A stretch of DNA of 37,314 nucleotides from the NCBI GenBank assembly GCA_043749935.1, contig JAYVCO010000327.1, positions 1 to 37,314 on the forward strand. Reading direction: 5' to 3'. Positions within the stretch are counted from its first letter, which is position 1. The number at the start of each line of letters is the position of its first letter. A program made the translations under genes and the position numbers. Positions 4,096 to 18,092 of this stretch are shown here, one piece after another. Under the pieces are notes generated by a model. That model was not told the origin of the DNA and did no database searches. It was given only the letters and a program-made list of their open reading frames with translations. This stretch comes from Planctomycetia bacterium. Lineage in GTDB: Bacteria; Planctomycetota; Planctomycetia; Pirellulales; PALSA-1355.

Positions 4096-6201
4096 ATGGC
4101 CAAAAGAACTAGCAAACGCGGTAAGCCAAACGTGAAAGTCGCCGACGTCGACGAATCGCTCGATGAAACGGCCGCCGAGGAAGTCGCTGCCGAAGCCGAG
4201 CCCCAAAACGGCCAGGCCCACGGAAAGCGCCGTCGCGCCACGGCCCAGTCGATGGCCGCTAGCCAGCGCGATATTTCGGTCAGCGAGTTTTTCGCCAAGA
4301 ACCGGCACCTGCTCGGCTTCGACAATCCGCGCAAGGCCCTGCTGACCACGATCAAGGAAGCCGTCGACAATTCGCTCGACGCCTGCGAAGAGGCCGGCAT
4401 CCTGCCTGAGATTTGGGTTCACATCGAATCGACCGGGACCAATCGCTTCAAAGTCGGCGTGCAAGACAATGGCCCGGGCATTCTCAAAAAACAAATCCCG
4501 CTGATTTTCGGCAAGCTGTTGTACGGCTCGAAGTTTCATCGCCTGCGGATGAGCCGCGGACAGCAGGGCATCGGCATTAGCGCGGCCGGCATGTACGGCG
4601 TGCTCACCACCGGCAAGCCGGTGAAAATCGTTTCCAAGATTTCGCCGCGCAAGCCGGCCCACTATTACGAAATCAAAATCGACACCAAGAAGAACTTGCC
4701 AGAGATCCTCAATGGCGGCGGCGATGGTGTTGATATTCCGCCGAACGACGCCGGCACCAAGTACATCGAGAAGCATGGCATCGAATGGGTCGCCATCGAT
4801 CACGGCACGCGCGTGACGATCGAGCTCGAGGGCCGCTTCATTCGCGGCCGTGGCAGCGTCGACGAATATCTGGAACAAACCGCGATCGCCAACCCGCATG
4901 TCACGATCCACTATCTCGATCCCGAAAGTGTGCCCGGCGAGGACGAAAGACTTTATACGCGTTCCACCAACAAGCTGCCGCCCGAGCCAAAAGAGATCAA
5001 ACCGCACCCTTACGGCATCGAGTTGGGCATGTTGGTCGCGATGCTGCAAGACGCGAAGTCGATGACCTTGTCGCAATTTCTGACCACATCGTTCAGCAAG
5101 GTCAGCTCGAGCGTAGCCAGCAGAATCTGCGAGACGGCCAAGGTGAGCACTCGGGCGAACACCAGCAAGATCGGCCGCGACGAAGCCGACAAGCTGTACC
5201 ACGCGATCATGCAAACCAAAATTGGTCCGCCCGCGACCGATTGCATTTCGCCCATCGGCGAGGAACTGTTGCTCAAGGGTTTGCACCACGTCGTGCCGGG
5301 TGAGTTCTATATCGCCAGCACCCGGCCGCCGGCCGTCTATCGTGGCAATCCGTTTCAAATCGAAGTCGCGCTCGCCTATGGCGGAATGTCGAGTGCCAAT
5401 CGAGTGCCGCTCGACGTGCTTTCTGAACTGCTGGCCGAAAGCGACGCGCGCACGCTGCGGCAGTTCTTGAGCAACACGTTTTACGGCCTGGGCAGCGAAG
5501 CGGCCGACAAGATCATCAAGGAAGCCGCGATTGGCCCTCGCACTTCGCCGGGCAAGCTCAAGCCGGCTCAAATTGCCAAACTGCACGGAGCGATGGCCAG
5601 TGTCAACTTGGAATCCGGCCAGACGATGAATGTGCTGCGATATGCCAATCGCGTGCCGCTCCAGTTTCAACCCAGCGCGTGCGCGATCACGCAAATGGTG
5701 ATGGGAACCAACTGGCGCGCCTACGGGCTGACTCAATCGCGCGGCCAACTGCCGACCGGCCCAGTGACGATCATGGTCCACATGGCCAGCGTCTGGGTCC
5801 CCTTCACCAGCGAATCGAAAGAGGCCATCGCCAGCTATCCCGAAATCCAAAAAGAGCTGCGCCTGGGATTGCAATCCGTGGGGCGCAAATTGGGCATGTA
5901 CATGCGCCGCCGGTTGAAGGTGAAACAAGAAGGTGAGCGGCGCAATATTTTCCTGCGATACCTGGGGGAAGTGGCCGGCGCGGTAAGCGAAATCAACCAG
6001 GCCGATCGCAAGAAACTATATGAGCAACTGCTGCTGGTCGCTAAGCGCAAGACGGCTACGGCCGATATGAAACTCGACGAGCGCGGAAAGGTGTTGCAAG
6101 AAGAGCCCGAAGACTTTGGCGACAATGTGTTGATCGTCGAACAGAAATCCGATTTTGTAATTCGCAACATGGAAGCAAAGAATGGCCAAAAAGGCTCGTA
6201 A
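4096..6201 (+). CDS. top6B: DNA topoisomerase VI subunit B (GHKL/Bergerat ATPase)
   Basis: Motifs seen: ISVSEFFAKNRHLLGFD, N-box EAVDNSLDA, G1 box DNGPGI and G2 box GQQGIGIS. The transducer-like C-terminal half contains YANRVPL. The product is 701 aa with a Lys/Glu-rich N-terminal tail. Confidence 0.9.
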   Translation: MAKRTSKRGKPNVKVADVDESLDETAAEEVAAEAEPQNGQAHGKRRRATAQSMAASQRDISVSEFFAKNRHLLGFDNPRKALLTTIKEAVDNSLDACEEAGILPEIWVHIESTGTNRFKVGVQDNGPGILKKQIPLIFGKLLYGSKFHRLRMSRGQQGIGISAAGMYGVLTTGKPVKIVSKISPRKPAHYYEIKIDTKKNLPEILNGGGDGVDIPPNDAGTKYIEKHGIEWVAIDHGTRVTIELEGRFIRGRGSVDEYLEQTAIANPHVTIHYLDPESVPGEDERLYTRSTNKLPPEPKEIKPHPYGIELGMLVAMLQDAKSMTLSQFLTTSFSKVSSSVASRICETAKVSTRANTSKIGRDEADKLYHAIMQTKIGPPATDCISPIGEELLLKGLHHVVPGEFYIASTRPPAVYRGNPFQIEVALAYGGMSSANRVPLDVLSELLAESDARTLRQFLSNTFYGLGSEAADKIIKEAAIGPRTSPGKLKPAQIAKLHGAMASVNLESGQTMNVLRYANRVPLQFQPSACAITQMVMGTNWRAYGLTQSRGQLPTGPVTIMVHMASVWVPFTSESKEAIASYPEIQKELRLGLQSVGRKLGMYMRRRLKVKQEGERRNIFLRYLGEVAGAVSEINQADRKKLYEQLLLVAKRKTATADMKLDERGKVLQEEPEDFGDNVLIVEQKSDFVIRNMEAKNGQKGS

Positions 6202-7342
6202 ACCTGCCACCGCCGCCAACGGCAGCGCCAAGCCCAAGGCCGTGCTGACCGATCGCGATAAGAAAACGCTCAAAGACCTGCTCGGCTTGGCAGATCGTAT
6301 CGTCGACGACGCCGAGAAGAAGCGCGATCCGTATATTGACATTCCCACGCGTGCACTGTCGAACGTGCGCTACAACAAGAGCAAGCGGCGGATCGAGATG
6401 GGCTCGAACAAGAACCGCCGTCAGTTGTTCAACCTCTCGCAAGCCAAGAGCTATATGCAAACCGTGCTCGTGGCCAGCGGCTGCAAGCAACTGATCGAGC
6501 AAGGCAAGACCACCAGCATCCGAGGTCTCTATTATTTGCTCAAGCACACGATCGAGGGCACGCGCGAAGAAACGTTCGACGATCAGGCCGAGTGTGACCC
6601 CGTGATCGAAGACGTGGAAGTCGGTCTGAACAGCCTGCGCGAAGAGTTGCACGTCTACGCGTCGAATCGCGGCAACCTGGTCGGTCCGTTGACGCTAATC
6701 GACAGCGGTGACGAAATCGATTGTGCCCGCATGGGCTCGGCCGGCTACAGCATTCCCTCGATCGTCGAGCGCGACGTGATCGAGATCAAGAAGTGTACGG
6801 CCAAATTCATCTTGCACGTCGAAAAAGACACGGTCTGGCGCCGTTTCAGCGAGGACAAGTTCTGGCTCAAGCACAACTGCATTCTCACGCACGGCGGCGG
6901 GCAGCCCCCGCGCGGTGTGCGGCGCATGCTTAATCGACTGCACAATGAGCAGAAGCTGCCCGTGTATTGCCTGCTTGATAACGACCCGTGGGGATACTAC
7001 ATCTACAGCGTGCTCAAGCAGGGTTCGATCAACCTGGCCTACGAGTCGGAACGCATGGCCATCCCCGACGCCAAGTTTCTCGGCCTCCGCTCGCGCGATT
7101 ACGAGGCCTGCGGTCTCTCGCCCAGCGTGAAGATCAATCTCAACGAGCAAGACATCAAGCGCGCCAAGCAGATCGCCAGCTATCCCTGGTTTGAGCACAA
7201 GAAAGCCTGGCAAAAAGAAATCGAGCAAATGCTTTCCAACGGCTTCAAGCTAGAAGTCGAAGCCCTGATCTCCAAAGACATCAGCTACGTGACCGAAGAG
7301 TACACGCCGGCGCGGCTGGCGGATGGGGATTGGTTGGATTAG
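6182..7342 (+). CDS. top6A: DNA topoisomerase VI subunit A (Spo11 family)
   Basis: The catalytic-Tyr context is SIRGLYYLLKH. Toprim motifs are HVEKDTVW (Glu) and LLDNDPWGYYI (DxD), plus GQPPRGVRRML. It overlaps the end of top6B by 20 nt, which suggests translational coupling. Confidence 0.9.
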   Translation: MAKKARKPATAANGSAKPKAVLTDRDKKTLKDLLGLADRIVDDAEKKRDPYIDIPTRALSNVRYNKSKRRIEMGSNKNRRQLFNLSQAKSYMQTVLVASGCKQLIEQGKTTSIRGLYYLLKHTIEGTREETFDDQAECDPVIEDVEVGLNSLREELHVYASNRGNLVGPLTLIDSGDEIDCARMGSAGYSIPSIVERDVIEIKKCTAKFILHVEKDTVWRRFSEDKFWLKHNCILTHGGGQPPRGVRRMLNRLHNEQKLPVYCLLDNDPWGYYIYSVLKQGSINLAYESERMAIPDAKFLGLRSRDYEACGLSPSVKINLNEQDIKRAKQIASYPWFEHKKAWQKEIEQMLSNGFKLEVEALISKDISYVTEEYTPARLADGDWLD

Positions 7343-10715: not shown

Positions 10716-12284
10716 TTGTACGACGCATTATTGGACGAATTGGAAGACGATCCGACGCCGCATCAGGAAGAGGCCAGCGAATTATCGGACAAGCCCGCCG
10801 GCGACCTCGATCTGGACGATGATCTAGACGGCGTCGAACTTGGCGCGGATTTGGATCTGGATCTGGATCCCAAGGCTGAAGACCTGTTGGCCGTTGCCGA
10901 GGAAGAAGGCGAATCGTGGTCCGACGACCCGGTGCGCATGTACCTGACGCAGATGGGCGAGATCCCGCTGCTCACGCGGCAGGAAGAAATCTCGCTGGCC
11001 AAGAAAATCGAGATCACGCGCGCTCGCTTTCGCAGCCGCTTGCTCGAGTGCGACTACGTCATTCAAGTCGCGGTCAAGGTGCTGAAGCGCGTGCATGCCG
11101 GCGAGCTTCCGTTCGATCGGACCGTGCAGGTCTCGGTGACCGACCGCTTGGAAAAAGACCAGATTTTGGGCCGCTTTCCGCACAATTTGCGGACCATCGA
11201 CATCCTGCTCAAACAGAACCGCGACGATCACCGGATCGCCAGCAGCAAGTCCTATAAAATGTCGCAGCGTCGCGACGCCTGGCATCGCTTGGGTCGCCGC
11301 CGCCGCCGCGCGGTGAAGTTGGTCGAAGAGCTCGGCTTGCGCACCCAGCGCATCGAGCCGATGATTCGCACGCTGGAAGATTTCAGCCGGCGCGTCGATG
11401 GACTCAAGGCGCAAATCGATGCCCACAAGAAGGCCAAGGGCCCGCTCGCCGAACGCAAGTCCTGGATCATCGAGTATCGCACGATCTTGCGGGCCACGCA
11501 GGAGTCGCCCACCAGCCTGCGCAATCGGGTCATGGGCTTGAAGGTCGTCTATTCGCAATATCAGCAGGCCAAGCGCGGATTGTCGGAAGGCAACTTGCGA
11601 TTGGTCGTGTCGATCGCCAAAAAGTATCGCAACCGCGGGTTGAGCTTCTTGGATTTGATTCAGGAAGGCAACGCCGGTTTGATGCGCGCGGTCGACAAGT
11701 TCGAGTATCGCCGCGGCTTCAAGTTCTGTACCTACGCCACGTGGTGGATTCGCCAGGCGATCACTCGGGCGGTGGCCGATCAGAGCCGCACGATCCGGAT
11801 TCCGGTCCACATGGTCGAGACGATGTCGCGCGTGCGGAACGTTTCGCGCCAGTTGCTGCAAGAGTTGGGTCGCGAGCCGACGATCGAAGAGACCGCCAAA
11901 GCCGCCGGCACGGCCGTCGACGAGGCCCGTCGCGTGTTGGCCATGAGCCGCTACCCGATCAGCCTCGATCGGCCGGTGGGCAACAGCGAAGACAGCCATT
12001 TCGGCGACTTATTGCCCGATTCGGGTGCTGAAAACCCGGCCATCGGCGCCGCGCAAGAGATGTTGCGCGGCCGGATTGCCAAGGTGCTCAAAACGCTCAG
12101 CTACCGCGAGCGCGAGATCATCAAGCTCCGCTACGGTTTGGGCGACGGTTACAGCTATACGCTCGAAGAAGTGGGCCACATTTTCAAAGTGACCCGCGAG
12201 CGCATCCGCCAGATCGAAGCCAAGGCCGTCCGGAAACTCCAACAGCCCAGCCGCAGCCAAGAGCTAGTCGGGTTCTTGGATTAA
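10716..12284 (+). CDS. rpoD: Primary RNA polymerase sigma-70 factor RpoD
   Basis: Motifs seen: [32 protein letters not shown] (region 2.4) and [27 protein letters not shown] (region 4.2), with an acidic region 1.1. The track starts the ORF at TTG 10692. The in-frame TTG at 10716 sits 7 nt after AGGAG (10704-10708), so I prefer it. Confidence 0.9.
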
Positions 12285-12319
12285 GCGACGCGTCGCTGAC
12301 CGTTAAGAAGTAACAACTC

Positions 12320-12357
12320 GCGAGCTGGACGACTTATTCGTCCAGCTCGCTTTTTTT
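12320..12357 (+). terminator. Rho-independent terminator of rpoD
   Basis: A 13-bp perfect stem pairs gcgagctggacga (12320-12332) with tcgtccagctcgc (12338-12350). The loop is cttat and a T7 run follows (12351-12357). Confidence 0.85.
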
Positions 12358-12468
12358 GGTAGGTCACTGCCCATCTACAAAACTAACGTTTGGTGGTCGA
12401 TATAACCGGAAAACTACCTTTCCCAATCGGCTGTTTTTTCATGCATGAGCGAAGAGTAGAATCAGGGC

Positions 12469-12678
12469 ATGAAACTAAAACCGCGAATAACGGTTGGGGT
12501 CGTCTTTGCAGGCATTCTTGGATTCTTGGCAGGCATGTTGGCTTTCGCCATCAAGGGTTCCGTCACAGATTCACGAGATGCAGTGCGGTGGGCTGGGGAA
12601 AAAATGGAACTACGCCAAGAAATCTTTGCCCTCAAGGATCAAATCGAGGCTATGAAGGCGGAAACGGGCGACCGATGA
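12469..12678 (+). CDS. Small single-pass membrane protein with a coiled-coil tail (hypothetical)
   Basis: 69 aa. The TM helix is ITVGVVFAGILGFLAGMLAFAI and the tail has a heptad-like pattern (ELRQEIFALKDQIEAMKAE). I recognise no family. Confidence 0.45.
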   Translation: MKLKPRITVGVVFAGILGFLAGMLAFAIKGSVTDSRDAVRWAGEKMELRQEIFALKDQIEAMKAETGDR

Positions 12679-12720
12679 AAAACTGTTCAAATGATGTCAC
12701 TACCTTTTTCCTCAGGCAGT

Positions 12721-12749
12721 TTGACAAACCCAACCTCTACTGCTAGATT
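12721..12749 (+). promoter_or_regulatory. Sigma-70-type promoter with an extended -10, driving the B12 riboswitch leader
   Basis: TTGACA (12721-12726), a 17-nt spacer ending in TGC, then TAGATT (12744-12749). It lies about 12 nt upstream of the riboswitch P1 stem. Confidence 0.5.
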
Positions 12750-12760
12750 GCCCGCCTAGC

Positions 12761-12966
12761 GTGTGTTGGTGGTCGGAGGCTTCTCTCTTGAAGTGTCCGA
12801 CAAACAGGGAACTCCGGTGCAATTCCGGGACGGCCCCGCCGCTGTAACCGAGTGTCAAGGGAAGCTGATTCGTGCCATTGTCTGCCCGGGTCGCCGCAAG
12901 GTGAACCGACGCCGACGAGAAGGCCAGCCCAGCCCGAACTCGGGAGTCAGAAGACCTACCAACACG
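12761..12966 (+). promoter_or_regulatory. Cobalamin (adenosylcobalamin/B12) riboswitch, Rfam RF00174-like
   Basis: The core cagggaactccggtgcaattccgggacggccccgccgctgtaacc matches the conserved AGGGAA..GGTG.AA.TCC...CCCGCC.CTGTAA core. A gccattg element is present. The B12 box agtcagaagacctacc lies at 12945-12960. The closing P1 helix pairs gtgttggt (12763-12770) with accaacac (12958-12965). Confidence 0.85.
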
Positions 12967-13163
12967 TTGATCGGTGGCTCGCCGCGAGGGACGGGGGCCG
13001 CAGAGTGTTTGTTGGCCTTAGGACGCCGCTAATCGTTCGCTCTTGCTCTCGTTGACCACTCGAACCCGGGTCATGCGCGCTGGCTCTTTGCGCCCGCTGC
13101 ACGCACCCCCTCGGTTTCTGTCTCGACGTTGGCACGCGCGAACCGTGTGCGCTTGAACGACCC

Positions 13164-14051
13164 GTGACGAAACAGCATCCCGCACTTTGCCGCCTGCGCT
13201 CTCGAGCTTTCACGCTCGTCGAGCTGCTGGTCGTGATCGCCATCATCGGCGTGCTCGTGGCGATATTGCTACCGGCCATTCAGCAATCGCGCGAGAGCGC
13301 CCGGCGTAGTAGCTGCGCCAATAATCTGCGGCAGATCGGCATCGGCCTGTTGGCCTATCACGATGCCATCGGCACTTTTCCGCCCGGCCTGATCGACGGC
13401 CGCACGGGCCACAACCCTCACGGCAAGCAGCACGCCTGGTCGATCTTCTTGCTGCCGTTCATCGAAGAGACGAGCATCTCGGGTCGGTTTGATCTGAACT
13501 TCGCCTACGACAGCCAGCAAAACCGCGCAGGCGGCGGCACCGTGCTATCGATTTACAATTGCCCCAGCACTTCGACCTTGGCCTCCGACCGCAAGGGTGA
13601 CACGACCGGCGACATGAATGGCAATGGGCAGTGGGATCCGGGAGACGACTTGGCATTCACCGATTACGGCGGCAATTTCGGCTTCTCAGGTTTGAACAAG
13701 CCGTACATGAACGGCGTGCTGCTGTATGAAAAACCAATTGCGATCGGCCAGATCCGCGACGGCACCTCGCACACGATCATCGTCTCGGAAGACACCGGCC
13801 GCGGGCCCGCCTTCGACGGCCAATGGGCCAACGGCCAGAACATTTTCGACCAATCGGGCCCCATCAACGATCGCACGTCGCCGCCCTACTTGTGGGCCAA
13901 CAACGAAATGTGGAGCGATCATCCCGGCGGGATCAACGCCCTGATGTGCGACGGCTCGGTGCACTTTTTGTTCGAACAGATGGACCTCGACACGTTGGCA
14001 GCGATTTGCACGCGCGCCAGTGAAGAAGTGCTCGATGGCAGCGCATTTTGA
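13164..14051 (+). CDS. DUF1559 / H-X9-DG protein with a type IV pilin-like (prepilin) N-terminal domain
   Basis: The N-terminus is RAFTLVELLVVIAIIGVLVAILLPAIQQSRESARRSSCANNLRQIG, a prepilin cleavage/methylation motif plus the DUF1559 signature. The C-terminus is HPGGINALMCDG (H-X9-DG). The start is GTG, because an upstream in-frame stop at 13152 limits extension. Confidence 0.9.
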   Translation: MTKQHPALCRLRSRAFTLVELLVVIAIIGVLVAILLPAIQQSRESARRSSCANNLRQIGIGLLAYHDAIGTFPPGLIDGRTGHNPHGKQHAWSIFLLPFIEETSISGRFDLNFAYDSQQNRAGGGTVLSIYNCPSTSTLASDRKGDTTGDMNGNGQWDPGDDLAFTDYGGNFGFSGLNKPYMNGVLLYEKPIAIGQIRDGTSHTIIVSEDTGRGPAFDGQWANGQNIFDQSGPINDRTSPPYLWANNEMWSDHPGGINALMCDGSVHFLFEQMDLDTLAAICTRASEEVLDGSAF

Positions 14052-14061
14052 AACACGACCC

Positions 14062-15204
14062 ATGAACTATCCAAACCCGACTTCAAACTTATTCAGCAGG
14101 TCTCACATGACGAACAATGTAACGACGAGCAAGTTGACCGACGCTGGCCCCAAGAATCGAAAGGCTTTCTCTGCCGCCTCGAAGGTCGCTCTCGGCGGCG
14201 TAGCGGTTGTCTTCACGATTTTGTCATCGACCGCGGCAGGAGCGCAAGTTCCGCTGCCCGCGGCGCCAATCACGATCACGTTTCCCAATCCCACTTCGCC
14301 CAACGTGCCGCCGTTTTCCACGGTTTCGGCCACTTTCGGCCCCAGCGACGGTTTGCTGTATGTGTGGGATGGAGTGAGCGTGTTGAAAGAGAGTGCATCC
14401 GGGACCAGCGTGTTCAATCCGTTTGGTTCGGTGCCCAACACGAACAGCTCGGACCCCGGACCAATCAGTTTTTCGAGCGACGGCAATCAAATCTTGCTGG
14501 GCAATGGCGCGGGCGGCAACCTGGGCGGAACGTTCAATGGCATGATGTTCGTGATGCCGAAAACCGGCGGCGCCGTTTCAGCGCCGGTCGGCGGCACTGC
14601 CCCTTGGCACGACGCGTTTGTCGCCAGCCCGCTTTCCGCCAGCCAATTCTTCATCAACCAGGGCAACGCAAGTTTTAGCGCCAGCAGCGTTTCGCGATAT
14701 GACTTGACCTCCGACATCGTCAAGAGCGTCATTCAAAACATTCCTGGCGCGGGCGCTTCGATGGCGGTTCAGAATGGACTACTCTACGCGGACATCGGAT
14801 ACGGGCCCCAACAGGGCGAGATTCGCAGCTTCGCATTGACGCAACTGAATACCGCGGCCGCGAATAATTCTCCGCTGGAATGGACTGCCGGAACGCTCTT
14901 CAACTCGCTGAACAACAACAGTGGGGCCGGAATGTTTTTCGACCAGCGGAGGTTCCTGTTCGTCGGCGGCGGCGATGGAGTCACCGTGTTCGACACGATT
15001 GGTAATAGCCGGCTGTACACGAACAACGGCTACTCGGCCGTGACCTACGATTCGCATAACAATGCCGTGCTGGTCACTGGCTATGGCGACCACCAGGGAA
15101 TTTATCCCGCGTCGATTTTTACTGTTCCCGAGCCAAGCACCGCTGCGTTAGCACTGGTCGGCCTGCTCTTGCTTCCGCTGCGCCGCCGAATGCGGCGTCG
15201 TTAA
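14062..15204 (+). CDS. PEP-CTERM-anchored secreted protein, possibly beta-propeller-like
   Basis: The C-terminus is VPEPSTAALALVGLLLLPLRRRMRRR (PEP motif, TM helix, Arg cluster). The signal region is VALGGVAVVFTILSSTAAGAQ. The start is uncertain (GTG 14020, ATG 14035, 14062 or 14107). Strand-then-Gly/Asp motifs recur: LLYVWDG, ILLGNG, LLYADIGYG, LFVGGGDG and VLVTGYG. Confidence 0.8.
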   Translation: MNYPNPTSNLFSRSHMTNNVTTSKLTDAGPKNRKAFSAASKVALGGVAVVFTILSSTAAGAQVPLPAAPITITFPNPTSPNVPPFSTVSATFGPSDGLLYVWDGVSVLKESASGTSVFNPFGSVPNTNSSDPGPISFSSDGNQILLGNGAGGNLGGTFNGMMFVMPKTGGAVSAPVGGTAPWHDAFVASPLSASQFFINQGNASFSASSVSRYDLTSDIVKSVIQNIPGAGASMAVQNGLLYADIGYGPQQGEIRSFALTQLNTAAANNSPLEWTAGTLFNSLNNNSGAGMFFDQRRFLFVGGGDGVTVFDTIGNSRLYTNNGYSAVTYDSHNNAVLVTGYGDHQGIYPASIFTVPEPSTAALALVGLLLLPLRRRMRRR

Positions 15205-15361
15205 AGGCGGCTTTGGCCGCTGATCATTTAGAGTTTCGTCGCCGAGATCACAAAAAAAGATCGAACGCGATGTCCGCTCGCGGTGCGCGCACAACGAGCG
15301 GATGAGCGTGTCTTGAGCGCCAGATTTTTCCATCCTTCTTGAACCTGCGAGGACTCGACTA

Positions 15362-16270
15362 ATGCACGTTTCGATACTATCGGCAACGCTGGCAATCCTG
15401 TTGGTGGCCCAAGCCTCGGCCGGCCCTTATGCTCCGCCCGCCGGGCAGCCCGGCTCGACCGCGATTCCCAACTCCAGCCCCTCGATTGTCGAGTGGGCCA
15501 GCGGGTTTCAAAACCTGATTCGCGGGCCGATGGACATTGCCAATCCAGCGGGCGGGCTCGCTTCGTTCGGAACCGGCAACGAGGCGCTGGCCGTCGCCGA
15601 CGGCAATTCGTTGCACGTGGTCAGCCTCGGCGATCGTGGACAAATCACGCTCAGCTTCGACCGGCCGATCGCCGATGGTCCGGGCGCGGATCTGGCGGTG
15701 TTCGAGAACAGTTTTAGCGACAGCTTTTTGGAACTGGCGGTCGTCGAAGTTAGCACCAACGGAACAGACTTCTTGCGATTTCCGGCCGTCTCGCTCACGC
15801 AAACCACGACCCAAGTCGGCGGGTTCAGCTCGCTCGACGCCACAAACCTCGACAACCTGGCGGGCAAGTATCGCGGTGGATTTGGCACTCCCTTCGACCT
15901 GCACCAGCTCGCCGGCCTGTCGCCCAACGTCGACGTCAACCAGATCCATTTTGTGCGAATCATCGACGTCGTCGGCTCGATCAATCCAAGTTTGGGGACG
16001 CAAGACTCGTTGGGCAATATGATCAATGATCCTTACCCCACCGCGTCGGCCAGCGGCGGCTTCGACCTGGACGGTGTCGGCGTGATCAACGTGGTGCCCG
16101 AGCCAGCCACGCTGACGCTGTTGGCGGTCGGTTTTGTGCTGGCCTGTGGATTTCGCAGGCGCCGCCGCGCGTTGACAGTCGGGGCCTTGGCTGTGTCCAA
16201 TCGAGCCAGCCTCGATTTACAACATAGCTGGTCGAAACAACCCTCTAATGAGTTCTCCGCAGGAACATAA
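15362..16270 (+). CDS. PEP-CTERM-anchored secreted protein with an unusual 33-aa tail after the Arg cluster
   Basis: The signal peptide is MHVSILSATLAILLVAQASAGP. The PEP-CTERM motif is VVPEPATLTLLAVGFVLACGFRRRRR. The body contains GADLAVFENSFSDSFLELAVVEVSTNGTDF. The 3' end overlaps the next gene by 23 nt. Confidence 0.8.
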   Translation: MHVSILSATLAILLVAQASAGPYAPPAGQPGSTAIPNSSPSIVEWASGFQNLIRGPMDIANPAGGLASFGTGNEALAVADGNSLHVVSLGDRGQITLSFDRPIADGPGADLAVFENSFSDSFLELAVVEVSTNGTDFLRFPAVSLTQTTTQVGGFSSLDATNLDNLAGKYRGGFGTPFDLHQLAGLSPNVDVNQIHFVRIIDVVGSINPSLGTQDSLGNMINDPYPTASASGGFDLDGVGVINVVPEPATLTLLAVGFVLACGFRRRRRALTVGALAVSNRASLDLQHSWSKQPSNEFSAGT

Positions 16271-17051
16271 CCGCAAGGCGTGGGACGCGCGCGTGCGCGC
16301 TTCTGCACGTTTTACGCAGCCTGCCGCCGATGAGGATTTTCGCAATCCACTGGCCGTCGTCGATGGGCCGGGTTGGTTGGGCCGCACGATCGCGGGCCGG
16401 CGGCTCTTGTGTCTGGCCAGCGGCGGCGGACGCCAAAGCGCGCTGTACGCCGCCGCCGGAGCGCTGGTGACGGTCGTCGACATCAGCGCCGAAATGTTGG
16501 CGCTCGATCGTGCTGTGGCTGCGGAGCGTGGACTGGAGCTGCGGACGATCGAAGCGTCGATGGACGACCTGACCGCGCTTCAACCAGCGAGCTTCGAAAT
16601 TGTGATTCAGCCGGTCAGCACTTGCTACGTGCCCAACGTGGTGGAAGTCTATCGCCAGGTTGCCAGGGTGATGGTGCCGGGCGGGCTGTACATCAGCCAA
16701 CACAAGCAGCCAGCCAGTTTGCAAGCGGCCGTCGACCCGACTGCGCGGCGCGGATACGAGTTGATCGAGCCTTACTATCGTAGCGGTCCGCTGCCGAGCG
16801 TGGTCGGCAGTCCTCATCGCGAGCCGGGCACGGTCGAGTTTTTGCATCGCTGGGAAGAGCTGTTGGGCGGAATGTGTCGCGCCGGCTTTGCCATCGAAGA
16901 CCTGCTCGAACCCTTGCACGCCGACGACCAGGCCGAAGTCGGCAGCTTTGCGCACCGCAGCCGCTATGTGGCACCCTACGTACGCATCAAAGCCCGGCGA
17001 AACAATAACGCCCCCAAGGAAAACTCGGCCGCCAAGGTCTGGCTGCCGTGA
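16248..17051 (+). CDS. Class I SAM-dependent methyltransferase
   Basis: Motif I is LCLASGGGRQSALYAAAGALVTVVDIS. An acidic loop and VPGGLYIS follow it. The N-terminus is NRKAWDARV. 267 aa. Confidence 0.8.
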   Translation: MSSPQEHNRKAWDARVRASARFTQPAADEDFRNPLAVVDGPGWLGRTIAGRRLLCLASGGGRQSALYAAAGALVTVVDISAEMLALDRAVAAERGLELRTIEASMDDLTALQPASFEIVIQPVSTCYVPNVVEVYRQVARVMVPGGLYISQHKQPASLQAAVDPTARRGYELIEPYYRSGPLPSVVGSPHREPGTVEFLHRWEELLGGMCRAGFAIEDLLEPLHADDQAEVGSFAHRSRYVAPYVRIKARRNNNAPKENSAAKVWLP

Positions 17052-17054
17052 GGA

Positions 17055-17145
17055 ATAGTGGTTAGTGGTTGGTGGATAGTGGTTAGCACAAAGGCAAAAG
17101 AACTGCATTTTCCCTAATCCCGAATCCCTAGTCCCCAACCCCTAT
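17055..17145 (+). repeat. Long imperfect G-U-rich hairpin with an internal direct repeat, in the methyltransferase-aroE spacer
   Basis: A 32-nt G/T-rich arm (17055-17086, with atagtggttag twice) faces a 32-nt C/A-rich arm (17114-17145). A hand pairing gives about 20 Watson-Crick and 5 G-U pairs, on the plus strand only. Confidence 0.4.
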
Positions 17146-17243
17146 TTCGCCGGCCGTTGCATTCCTTCCCGCGCTCGATCAAGATAGACGCACACTTGCT
17201 GACTGCCCAAAAGCCTCGAAAAATCCTCTGAGAAACCGCGTCC

Positions 17244-18092
17244 GTGTCCAACCCCGTGATCCAAGAAATCGTAGCGGTGTTTGGCCAGCCCGTGGCGGGG
17301 AACCCGACGCAATACATGATGGAAAAGGCCTTCGTCCAGGTCGGCCTCGATTGGCGATATCTGACGCTGGAGGTCGCGCCCGAAAACCTGGCCGACGCGG
17401 TCCGCGGCATGCGTGCGATGGGTTTTCGCGGCTGCAATCTGACGATTCCGCACAAGGTCGCAATCATTCCCTATCTCGATCGCACGAGCGAAGCCGCCAC
17501 CTTGATGGGCGCGGTCAATTGCGTCAATCGCGTGGGCGATGAACTGGTGGGCGAGAATACCGACGGCAAGGGCTTCGTGCAATCGTTGCGCGAAGTCACC
17601 GACCCGACCGGAAAGAACGTTTTGATTCTGGGCGCTGGCGGCGCGGCCCGCGCGATTGCCGTTGAAGTGGGTCTGGCCGGCGCGGCGCAAATTGCGATCG
17701 TCAATCGCGACGAAACGCGCGGCCAGCAGTTGGTCGCATTGCTAAACGAGAAAGTACACGTCCCGGCGCGGTATGTGAAATGGGAAGGCAGTTTCGAAGT
17801 TCCTCCCGAGGTCGAGGTGGTGATCAATGCCACGTCGATTGGATTGGGCGACGCTTCGGCCCGGGTGCCGCTGGCCGTGCAAACGCTCGAGCCCGACATG
17901 GTCGTGGCCGATGTGATTTTCAATCCGCCCGAGACGCGATTGATTCGCGATGCTCGCTCGCGCGGTTGCCAGACGCTGGACGGGTTGGGCATGCTCGTCA
18001 ACCAGGCGGTGATCGCCTTCAAGATTTGGACCGGCCAGGACGCCAACGCCGAAGTAATGCGCGACGCGTTGGAGGAATTCCTGGGCCTCTAG
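17244..18092 (+). CDS. aroE: Shikimate dehydrogenase
   Basis: Motifs seen: GCNLTIPHK, GAVNCV, GENTDGKGF and the ILGAGGAARA Rossmann motif. 282 aa with a GTG start. Confidence 0.9.
   Translation: MSNPVIQEIVAVFGQPVAGNPTQYMMEKAFVQVGLDWRYLTLEVAPENLADAVRGMRAMGFRGCNLTIPHKVAIIPYLDRTSEAATLMGAVNCVNRVGDELVGENTDGKGFVQSLREVTDPTGKNVLILGAGGAARAIAVEVGLAGAAQIAIVNRDETRGQQLVALLNEKVHVPARYVKWEGSFEVPPEVEVVINATSIGLGDASARVPLAVQTLEPDMVVADVIFNPPETRLIRDARSRGCQTLDGLGMLVNQAVIAFKIWTGQDANAEVMRDALEEFLGL

Follow-up and report, generated by a model that had tools for sequence, protein, structure and literature searches.

A cobalamin-riboswitch-led cluster of a DUF1559 prepilin, two PEP-CTERM proteins and a methyltransferase in a Pirellulales bacterium, a candidate corrinoid-acquisition module

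Here, we describe a locus from a Planctomycetia bacterium (Pirellulales; PALSA-1355; assembly GCA_043749935.1) which is probably a B12-repressed operon scavenging extracellular corrinoids, with components characteristic of PVC-type envelopes. It lies in contig JAYVCO010000327.1, of which 37,314 nt, referred to below as the window, were analysed, and it reveals the order riboswitch, ORF1, ORF2, ORF3 and ORF4 on a single strand (Table 1). The initial annotation, which had described a DUF1559 prepilin, two PEP-CTERM proteins and a methyltransferase led by a B12 riboswitch, was confirmed by the Rfam model and by domain searches. Its suggestion of a cobalamin-responsive module for capture or uptake at the cell surface gains support from comparative genomics, and a role of the module in B12 acquisition is well supported by the same data. 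If this reading is true, B12 would be scavenged with a pilin in place of the usual outer-membrane transporter. No earlier description of a module consisting of riboswitch, prepilin and surface proteins was found in the literature.

Table 1. Features of the cluster, with positions in the window
Feature	Position	Strand	Remark
Promoter-like site, TTGACA-17-TAGATT with TG extension in the spacer	12721..12749	+	directly 5' of the riboswitch
Cobalamin riboswitch aptamer, RF00174	12750..12977	+	Rfam covariance model
Candidate expression platform, GC-rich hairpin (12971-13004) and U-rich tract GUGUUUGUUGG	12971..13015	+	
ORF1, type IV prepilin-like, DUF1559 (SBP_bac_10) with H-X9-DG motif (HPGGINALMCDG)	13164..14051	+	first regulated gene
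ORF2, secreted six-bladed beta-propeller with PEP-CTERM anchor	14107..15204	+	predicted structure, sequence motif
ORF3, secreted beta-jellyroll with PEP-CTERM anchor	15362..16270	+	family profile, predicted structure
ORF4, cytoplasmic class-I SAM-dependent methyltransferase	16248..17051	+	Methyltransf_11, E 3e-14

Architecture of the locus

The aptamer, the sole Rfam match in the 37-kb window, scored 80.3 bits (gathering score 31.5; E 2.1e-18) over the full model (1-189), with high posterior probability in the B12-box region. A motif scan of positions 12200-17400 detected the promoter-like site, which is sigma-70-like with 10 of 12 consensus matches, as the single such site compared with a mean of 1.2 in shuffled sequences, and by sequence alone it is only suggestive of a promoter. 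Being located before the aptamer and after a strong rpoD terminator (12320-12350), it fits an independent transcript. The interval singled out by the initial annotation begins exactly at this site. Behind the aptamer, the hairpin (-18 kcal/mol) is kept in four close relatives, and compensatory changes affect four of its pairs; its stability is no greater than that of shuffled sequence (z = 0.24), it was not detected by a simple terminator scan, and it is not a canonical terminator. Together with the U-rich tract, it is tentatively regarded as a candidate expression platform.

In line with the initial annotation, which saw none nearby, the scan of larger ORFs in the 37-kb window yielded no btuB, btuFCD or cob/cbi gene; neither TonB-dependent receptors nor pilus assembly genes (ATPase, platform, secretin) were detected among the window ORFs scanned, and the window holds no members of BtuG/DUF5074 or DUF4465. 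Other genes in the window include rpoD, aroE, GH172, topoisomerase VI, agmatine deiminase and glycogen genes. The annotation had taken the 157 nt that separate ORF2 from the start of ORF3 at 15362 as a possible sign of a separate transcript; this gap is real, and the terminator scan revealed no terminator-like site on the + strand within it.

ORF1 matches three family models, each above its cutoff, namely N_methyl (PF07963; 30.5 bits), SBP_bac_10/DUF1559 (PF07596; 150.6 bits, E 1e-43) and H-X9-DG-CTERM (TIGR04294; 37.4 bits), and its prepilin cleavage motif R-A-F-T-L-V-E-L-L is intact. Matches to the GspG, ComGC and PilA models cover the N-terminal segment only, those to solved structures (geopilin, PilE, GspG) are limited to the N-terminal pilin helix, and scores against equivalog models (GspG and others) fall far below cutoff. 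Apart from the first 65 residues and the H-X9-DG motif, prepilins of planctomycetes could not be aligned with verrucomicrobial ones.

For ORF2, the ORF listing begins at 14020, and the 365-aa form agrees with the database protein P0001. Its model (pLDDT 85.5) finds its best Foldseek matches in six-bladed propellers, namely gluconolactonase, Drp35 and strictosidine synthase. The C-terminal end (VPEPSTAALALVGLLLLPLRRRMRRR) scores 17.1 bits with the Pfam PEP-CTERM model, below the cutoff of 20.7; the pattern of VPEP, hydrophobic stretch and RRRMRRR is visible, and members of the family carry PF07589. This family is small, with 51 matches. An assignment to BtuG (DUF5074, PF16819), which is seven-bladed, was rejected, there being no Pfam match, six blades, an hhalign value of 22% against the DUF5074 proteins of the loci and no BtuG in the Foldseek top 50. 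The analogy to BtuG drawn in the initial annotation is thus sound at the fold level and fails at the family level. DUF4465 (PF14717) gave no Pfam match to ORF2 either.

ORF3 carries a PEP-CTERM motif at residues 245-268 (PF07589, 25.0 bits, cutoff 20.7; TIGR02595, 21.1 bits, cutoff 16), followed by a tail of 34 aa. Its top PDB match by Foldseek (model pLDDT 78) is 8blw_B, which is BtuG1 (E 2.5e-4, TMq 0.35), and sequence matches to this chain by profiles (E 0.05 and 0.0018) fall within the BtuH-type domain, residues 393-472, with one shared motif block. In a reverse phmmer search from this domain, ORF3 homologs alone were matched (E 3e-4), and hhalign of the family against it gave 68% (E 4.7e-5 over 79 columns); BtuH2 (7BIZ) was not among the top 50 Foldseek matches. 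The nearer solved relative in the module's comparison with Btu proteins is the BtuH domain, and its similarity, a weak one, is to ORF3, which may be no more than distantly related to this B12-binding domain. An identity as BtuJ/DUF4465 (PF14717) was rejected, with no Pfam match and an hhalign value of 0.4% between the families.

ORF4 overlaps ORF3 by 23 nt. Its classification as the corrinoid-protein-associated methyltransferase CpaM (NF043040) was rejected, as the score of 31 bits falls far short of the cutoff (180), and the similarity to CpaM is generic class-I methyltransferase likeness only.

Recurrence and genomic company

The synteny of riboswitch, DUF1559 and PEP-CTERM genes recurs in other genomes. 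The full four-gene order is found in L001-L003, and again in L096 with an uncharacterised stretch of about 620 nt between ORF3 and the methyltransferase; in L084, riboswitch, DUF1559 and ORF2 are followed by the contig end. More distant Planctomycetota reveal variants of the arrangement (L006, L036, L065, the carrier of which is Botrimarina hoheduenensis Pla111, and L094), and the three secreted proteins of the cluster reappear, in permuted order, in Verrucomicrobiota. There, the riboswitch-proximal PEP-CTERM proteins are homologs of ORF2 (hhalign 97.8%, E 1e-12), standing behind riboswitches and before ORF3. Orthologs of ORF1 directly follow RF00174 in L001-L003, L006, L036 and L065. Relatives of ORF1 (43-72% identity) were also found in metagenome loci; where the DNA upstream could be used, RF00174 directly precedes the gene in 8 of 8 cases, and the partners in such loci include ORF2-like proteins, ORF3 and the methyltransferase. 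In L086, a BtuF/FhuD-type Peripla_BP_2 protein is encoded beside the ORF1 relative.

Orthologs of ORF4 (E 1e-83 to 1e-142) end the cluster in L001-L003, L036, L065, L094 and L096. In Pirellulales-like lineages, the methyltransferase belongs to the conserved gene set and is no bystander. Verrucomicrobial clusters, and most of the others, lack it but keep ORF3 and a prepilin.

ORF3 is the conserved core of the module. Its family is large (3401 clusters at 50% identity), has no Pfam model and is spread over many phyla, so a module specific to the planctomycete envelope, as the initial annotation had it, is not what we found; nor is the prepilin format planctomycete-only, being common to Planctomycetota, Verrucomicrobiota and Armatimonadota. 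Across phyla, the domain displays 47-59% identity, and numerous positions with Asp, Glu, Asn, Ser or Lys are invariant; this conservation is far above that of validated B12 binders and could indicate catalysis or another role instead of simple binding. The anchor changes with the phylum, PEP-CTERM being present in 20 of 24 PVC members and a C-terminal sorting domain of type IX secretion (T9SS) in 43 of 48 Bacteroidota members, which marks ORF3 as a putative extracellular or surface domain.

This family is linked to B12 riboswitches, DUF4465, and BtuB-type and BtuG-type genes. Of 80 genome loci, 63 have a same-strand cobalamin riboswitch upstream; 24 of the 63 reach the Rfam gathering score, and the remainder were called with an nhmmer profile, whose calls Rfam bore out in all 11 cases checked. 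Many loci are phylogenetically related, so that fewer independent events stand behind such counts than the figures suggest. In Bacteroidota and Proteobacteria, the family stands beside BtuB-type TonB receptors, BtuG-family propellers and DUF4465. The latter adjoins ORF3 homologs in eight loci (L005, L006, L010, L020, L032, L058, L063, L074) and, in 13 of 58 multidomain representatives, forms one protein with the ORF3 domain; it is thus a neighbour or fusion partner of the family and a different domain. Proteins with DUF4465 bind B12 experimentally, verrucomicrobial and planctomycete members included (PMC13398666, PMC12751083).

Prepilins and TonB receptors are distributed in a mutually exclusive fashion. 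Of the 26 clusters of Planctomycetota, Verrucomicrobiota and Armatimonadota, 23 contain prepilin genes, as against 0 of 55 of other phyla, whereas TonB-dependent receptors are found in none of these 26 and in 35 of the 55, as are, in the same number, DUF5074 (BtuG-family) propellers; the flank examined around the loci was about 6 kb, and BtuB or BtuFCD could sit elsewhere in those genomes. Among 295 genes scanned in PVC loci, all 18 motif-detected prepilins fall within the clusters. This distribution suggests that in PVC and Armatimonadota clusters the prepilin takes the place of the receptor.

Proposed import route and alternatives

In the mechanism that we propose, low B12 would lead the riboswitch to permit expression of a transcript from the 12721 promoter. 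Propeller ORF2 and jellyroll ORF3 would be exported by their Sec signal peptides and anchored at the cell surface via the PEP-CTERM/exosortase route, where they may capture corrinoid and pass it on, comparable to BtuG, BtuH and BtuJ in Bacteroides. ORF1, filling the operon position held by the TonB-dependent receptor BtuB in other phyla, would carry corrinoid across the envelope, most likely as a subunit, specific to B12, of a type IV pilus or of a pseudopilus-like fibre that moves its cargo inward. For the last step of import, a transporter of the inner membrane with its genes at another site would be needed. The cytoplasmic methyltransferase is a conserved, lineage-specific addition.

The closest known counterparts are the Btu loci of Bacteroides thetaiotaomicron, which comprise BtuB and the surface lipoproteins BtuG, BtuH, BtuJ (DUF4465) and BtuK (PMC6143338, PMC8941943, PMC10404256, PMC12751083). 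Like our cluster, they are operons under cobalamin riboswitch control and encode more than one secreted accessory protein with a beta-propeller or beta-sandwich/jellyroll fold, anchored at the surface or, in our cluster, predicted to be so. The fusion of propeller and H-domain in BtuG1 (PMC10404256) parallels the adjacent propeller ORF2 and ORF3 with its weakly BtuH-like domain, and in environmental Bacteroidota the ORF3 family is found inside BtuB-BtuG loci. In comparison, the window has no BtuB, BtuG/DUF5074 or DUF4465 and adds prepilin and methyltransferase, and its anchor is PEP-CTERM instead of lipidation. The DUF4465 B12 binders of Verrucomicrobiota and Planctomycetota, for instance D5EK51 of Coraliomargarita and a Mucisphaera protein (PMC13398666), share phyla, a secreted jellyroll-type architecture and genomic neighbourhoods with ORF3 homologs, whereas in our cluster ORF2 takes the position of DUF4465. 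For the neighbourhoods of DUF4465, that study reported transporters and propellers, but not prepilins or the ORF3 domain.

Type IV pili and competence pseudopili take up DNA, and type II secretion also has pseudopilins. ORF1 shares their prepilin leader and hydrophobic N-terminal helix, and a fibre moving cargo across the envelope is the working principle proposed here, too. In contrast to these systems, a vitamin would be transported, the DUF1559/H-X9-DG globular domain lacks a solved relative, and genes for an assembly ATPase, a platform or a secretin are missing near ORF1. Within the same phylum, pili-like fibres of crateriform structures bind dextran, which is then internalised (PMC5394234); this resembles the fibre-mediated nutrient capture proposed here without a TonB-dependent transporter.

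Keeping the role in B12 acquisition, ORF1 could also be a BtuF-like periplasmic binding or hand-over protein, tethered to the inner membrane by an uncleaved pilin-like helix, with corrinoids passing the outer membrane by another route. The Pfam short name of DUF1559 (SBP_bac_10) and the lack of pilus assembly genes nearby agree with this, and unrelated globular parts in planctomycete and verrucomicrobial prepilins might be expected of adaptable binding modules. We nevertheless consider it unlikely, since the prepilin stands in for a receptor, and the operons of other phyla hold outer-membrane and surface parts (TonB receptor, BtuG, DUF4465) and not BtuF/BtuCD; moreover, the cleavage motif is intact, and the genuine BtuF-type protein beside the ORF1 ortholog in L086 argues against a simple replacement of BtuF.

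Improbable, in our opinion, is a hoarding or sequestering of corrinoids by the surface proteins as a competitive reservoir or signal, without import and with the prepilin serving attachment or fibre display. A preprint proposes that BtuJ1 of Bacteroides acts as a vitamin reservoir outside the cell (bioRxiv 10.1101/2025.07.01.662609), and no transporter was found among the window ORFs scanned, but the presence of the ORF3 family within the TonB-dependent-receptor operons of other phyla and of one DUF1559-gene relative beside a BtuF-type protein points to import.

Cobalamin riboswitches often repress B12-independent isozymes. That the riboswitch serves the methyltransferase or another B12-independent function, with DUF1559 and PEP-CTERM genes as hitch-hikers, would match such common targets, the great expansion of both families in PVC bacteria and the conservation of ORF4 in Pirellulales-like loci, but it is very improbable and largely refuted by the comparative data, as ORF3 and the prepilin are kept in clusters lacking the methyltransferase, the motif-detected prepilins are all inside clusters, the riboswitch precedes the ORF1 relatives in every testable locus, and B12-transport genes partner ORF3 across phyla.

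The riboswitch-headed cluster in the window

All elements described in the initial annotation, namely a riboswitch-led DUF1559 gene, two PEP-CTERM genes and an overlapping methyltransferase gene, are present in the window. The riboswitch is the sole Rfam match there, and since a promoter-like site lies directly 5' of it and the rpoD terminator comes before, it probably heads a transcript of its own. No btu or cob genes were found among the larger ORFs scanned in the window, the identified ones being housekeeping genes. A terminator scan revealed no canonical intrinsic terminator 3' of the aptamer. The region 12940-13200 folded no better than shuffled sequence, and a conserved hairpin (12971-13004) with a U-rich tail is only suggestive as an expression platform.

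Features of the cobalamin riboswitch cluster and its upstream flank
Feature	Position	Strand	Properties
Terminator of preceding rpoD	12320-12350		Strong
Promoter-like site	12721-12749		TTGACA-17-TAGATT with TG extension; directly 5' of riboswitch
Cobalamin riboswitch aptamer (RF00174)	12750-12977	+	Complete; 80.3 bits (gathering score 31.5), E 2e-18
ORF1	13164-14051	+	Prepilin N-methylation motif, DUF1559/SBP_bac_10 (E 1e-43), H-X9-DG
ORF2	14107-15204	+	Pfam: only a sub-threshold PEP-CTERM motif
ORF3	15362-16270	+	Pfam: only an above-threshold PEP-CTERM motif
ORF4	16248-17051	+	Class-I SAM methyltransferase; 23-nt overlap with ORF3

In the public annotation (ENA scaffold), ORF1 begins at 13233 and has 272 aa, with prepilin leader and FTLVELL motif cut off; a GTG start at 13164 gives the protein a canonical prepilin N-terminus again (13164-13235). 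ORF1 and its closest orthologs share an insert at residues ~143-162 (window 13590-13650), GDTTGDMNGNGQWDPGDD, which resembles a calcium-binding loop. It is absent from the ortholog of locus L006, and in the L065 ortholog the insert aligns only in part and lacks the motif. ORF3 does not stop where its PEP-CTERM signal ends in an Arg-rich stretch but runs on for 34 residues (16168-16270), overlapping the methyltransferase start by 23 nt. Among 27 aligned homologs, this long tail is common only to the database protein P0053 (92% identical); most stop within ~10 residues after the Arg cluster, and two have other, unrelated extensions. Elsewhere on this planctomycete-like contig, two adjacent genes encode subunits B and A of topoisomerase VI (4096-7342; Topo-VIb_trans, TOP6A/Spo11 Toprim).

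Recurrence of the arrangement and the link of the ORF3 family to B12

A check proposed in the initial annotation, whether riboswitch-DUF1559-PEP-CTERM synteny recurs, had a positive outcome, with the full order found again in four loci. Three of them (L001-L003) are close relatives that share their flanking genes, and in the fourth, L096, an uncharacterised stretch of ~620 nt separates ORF3 from the methyltransferase; L006, L036 and L065 represent more distant Planctomycetota. Two carriers are strains in culture, Botrimarina hoheduenensis Pla111 (L065) and Aquisphaera insulae JC669 (L020).

Gene orders at genome or metagenome loci encoding ORF3 or ORF1 relatives (Verrucomicrobiota: riboswitch confirmed where upstream DNA sufficed)
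Order	Loci
Riboswitch, DUF1559, ORF2, ORF3, methyltransferase	L001, L002, L003, L096
Riboswitch, DUF1559, ORF2, then contig end	L084
Riboswitch, DUF1559, DUF4465, ORF3	L006
Riboswitch, DUF1559, 291-aa protein of unknown family, ORF3, methyltransferase	L065 (Botrimarina hoheduenensis)
Riboswitch, DUF1559, ORF3, weak DUF4465-like, methyltransferase	L036
Riboswitch, DUF1559, ORF2-like, methyltransferase	L094
Riboswitch, PEP-CTERM protein or DUF4465, ORF3, prepilin	12/13 Verrucomicrobiota loci

By hhalign (97.8%, E 1.3e-12, 288 columns), ORF2 is homologous to the PEP-CTERM proteins of the verrucomicrobial loci. The prepilins of these loci have the H-X9-DG motif, and full-length homology with the planctomycete prepilins was not found, the alignment to ORF1 covering the N-terminal 65 residues only. 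In a metagenome scan for ORF1, 14 loci were recovered (43-72% identity), and RF00174 lies directly upstream of the ORF1 relative in all eight with usable upstream DNA.

Some loci displayed peculiarities. Only in L001, a Diphthami_syn_2 (PP-loop ATPase-like) ORF is found between the ORF2 and ORF3 homologs (4424-5413), so an insertion can occupy this gap. The ORF3 homolog of L002 (4835-5659) has an in-frame stop (WAG*FDNL) in its conserved N-terminal region within an otherwise intact cluster; pseudogenisation or an error in the assembly could account for it. In the verrucomicrobial L044, two cobalamin riboswitches on the - strand (4219-4419 and 11003-11186), opposite to an ORF2-like/ORF3 pair, flank that pair; with a second ORF3 paralog at 11665-12531, the locus looks like a larger B12-regulated island.

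The ORF3 family comprises more than 7600 clusters at 90% identity in a word-indexed search and, in an exhaustive search, 3401 50%-identity representatives at E <= 1e-3 (1283 at E <= 1e-30), and no Pfam or specific NCBIfam model describes it. Identity of ORF3 to members from other phyla is unusually high (47-59%), and such extreme conservation may reflect more than passive binding. A genome scan yielded 560 confirmed matches, the best 80 of which belong to Planctomycetota, Verrucomicrobiota, Bacteroidota, Armatimonadota, Beta-/Deltaproteobacteria, Chlorobiota and Cloacimonadota. A cobalamin riboswitch lies upstream on the same strand in 63 of these 80 loci, which were taken with ~6-kb flanks and simple greedy ORF calling, many of them being mutually related and from metagenome-assembled genomes. 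Rfam confirmed 24 of the 63 at the gathering score; the others were called by an nhmmer profile built from Rfam matches, and all 11 such calls re-tested with Rfam were confirmed. In eight of the 17 negative loci, the available upstream sequence is shorter than 2 kb.

Family labels for neighbour genes were built on trimmed domains, without the shared PEP-CTERM and type IX secretion (T9SS) tails. In Bacteroidota, the riboswitch is usually followed by DUF4465, a TonB-dependent receptor, DUF5074 (the BtuG family) and ORF3, in this order, the receptor being present in 32/48 clusters, DUF5074 in 34/48 and DUF4465 in 17/48; Aquabacterium reveals riboswitch, ORF3, DUF4465-PEP-CTERM and TonB receptor. 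Of 58 multidomain representatives with the ORF3 domain, 13 also carry DUF4465 and five DUF4430, which we take to be a transcobalamin-like C-terminal domain. In vitro binding of B12 is documented for DUF4465 proteins, verrucomicrobial and planctomycete ones among them (PMC13398666; PMC12751083). The C-terminal sorting signal of the ORF3 family is PEP-CTERM in 20 of 24 PVC (Planctomycetota/Verrucomicrobiota-type) members and a T9SS sorting domain in 43 of 48 from Bacteroidota; this variation by phylum argues that ORF3 is an exported, surface-displayed domain.

In L058 (3228-3615), from a deltaproteobacterial MAG, a cobalamin riboswitch (78 bits) is followed ~110 nt on by a c-di-GMP-I-GGC match (RF03167, 63.3 bits, gathering 59). 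The two precede DUF4465 and an ORF3 homolog, and may form a tandem two-ligand leader.

Predicted folds of ORF2 and ORF3

The AlphaFold model of ORF2 is a six-bladed beta-propeller (pLDDT 85.5), nearest to propellers of the gluconolactonase, Drp35 and strictosidine-synthase type, with BtuG outside the top 50 matches. An assignment as BtuG homolog was rejected on this six-bladed model, the missing DUF5074 match and an hhalign value of 22%. ORF3 was modelled (pLDDT 78) as a beta-jellyroll of the CBM32/discoidin kind, and its best single PDB match is 8BLW chain B. This chain is BtuG1 of Bacteroides thetaiotaomicron, in which the BtuG propeller is fused to a BtuH-type B12-binding domain (PMC10404256). 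Two independent profiles of the ORF3 family match residues 393-472 of it, inside the H-domain, with marginal, motif-level E-values (0.05 and 0.0018). Searched against ~900 genes of the fetched loci, the 80-residue BtuG1-H fragment matched ORF3 homologs only. Profile-profile comparison by hhalign gave 68% probability and E 4.7e-5 across 79 columns; it spans no more because a homology search seeded with the 80-aa fragment gave only three short fragments.

This similarity is weak but consistent, and a remote relationship to the BtuH-type H-domain, not family membership, is possible. ORF3 as a clear BtuH homolog is not established, the profile matches being marginal and a direct phmmer search of ORF3 against PDB giving no match; a DUF4465/BtuJ identity was rejected. 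For ORF4, CpaM was likewise rejected, and assignment to another named enzyme was rejected or uninformative.

Prepilins and TonB receptors in B12 clusters

The 26 clusters from Planctomycetota, Verrucomicrobiota and Armatimonadota include a prepilin in 23 cases and neither a TonB receptor nor DUF5074 in any, whereas of the 55 clusters from all other phyla none has a prepilin, 35 have a TonB receptor and 35 have DUF5074. DUF1559/H-X9-DG pilin-like proteins number hundreds per PVC genome and have, to our knowledge, no known function. Chance adjacency to such an abundant paralog family does not explain the pattern, since all 18 motif-detected prepilins among 295 PVC-locus genes lie inside the clusters. 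None of the large neighbouring ORFs of the PVC loci proved to be a hidden TonB receptor.

As far as sequence data go, they support a module for B12-repressed corrinoid scavenging. The modelled folds, the anchors and a strong genomic association support predicted surface capture by ORF2 and ORF3, and a putative role of ORF1 is deduced from its substitution for BtuB. ORF1 could act like BtuF or as an envelope-crossing pilus or pseudopilus subunit. We favour the latter, because non-PVC operons encode outer-membrane and surface parts and not BtuF/BtuCD, and because a BtuF-type protein accompanies the ORF1 ortholog in one PVC-type cluster, L086, which is among the 14 metagenome loci. Behind the ortholog (53% identity) at this locus (838-2939) come a PEP-CTERM protein that includes a dockerin-like segment and, next, a Peripla_BP_2 (BtuF/FhuD-type) protein. 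No other PVC-type cluster showed a direct connection with an ABC-type importer of B12.

Pilus-mediated DNA uptake is a general precedent for an envelope-crossing ORF1. A precedent from the same phylum is given by the fibres of planctomycete crateriform structures, which bind dextran (PMC5394234). A broader reading, which we regard as rather doubtful, would make DUF1559/H-X9-DG proteins cargo-specific subunits of TonB-independent pilus nutrient import, with B12 as the first ligand assigned, that of the riboswitch subfamily, and the ORF3 jellyroll a pan-bacterial corrinoid hand-over module docking BtuB or pilin.

B12 is an essential, ecologically limiting vitamin, and B12-riboswitch-controlled surface relays are known from Bacteroides, so this kind of system is not new. 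Judged by the searchable literature, new aspects are the receptor-less, prepilin-containing version in PVC bacteria, the placement of a DUF1559 subfamily in a named ligand pathway, and the recognition that the ORF3 domain, unnamed and widespread, is a part of B12 uptake loci that is strongly conserved across environmental Bacteroidota, PVC bacteria and Proteobacteria. No earlier account in this literature links PEP-CTERM with a cobalamin riboswitch, or a prepilin with cobalamin in Planctomycetes, and DUF1559 is not mentioned there together with a riboswitch; a term search in a September 2026 review on the Bacteroides Btu system gave nothing on PVC phyla or on anchoring by PEP-CTERM or T9SS. 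The distribution of prepilins versus TonB receptors suggests a B12 route for bacteria whose B12 clusters are without a BtuB gene. DUF1559 is among the largest unexplained gene expansions of Planctomycetota, and as the riboswitch names the pathway ligand, the subfamily under its control offers a direct, testable way into family function.

In L011 (5782-8715) and L019 (5974-7605), a single reading frame combines the ORF3 domain with an H-X9-DG prepilin, by fusion or read-through, and one 50%-cluster representative with the ORF3 domain also bears N_methyl and SBP_bac_10.
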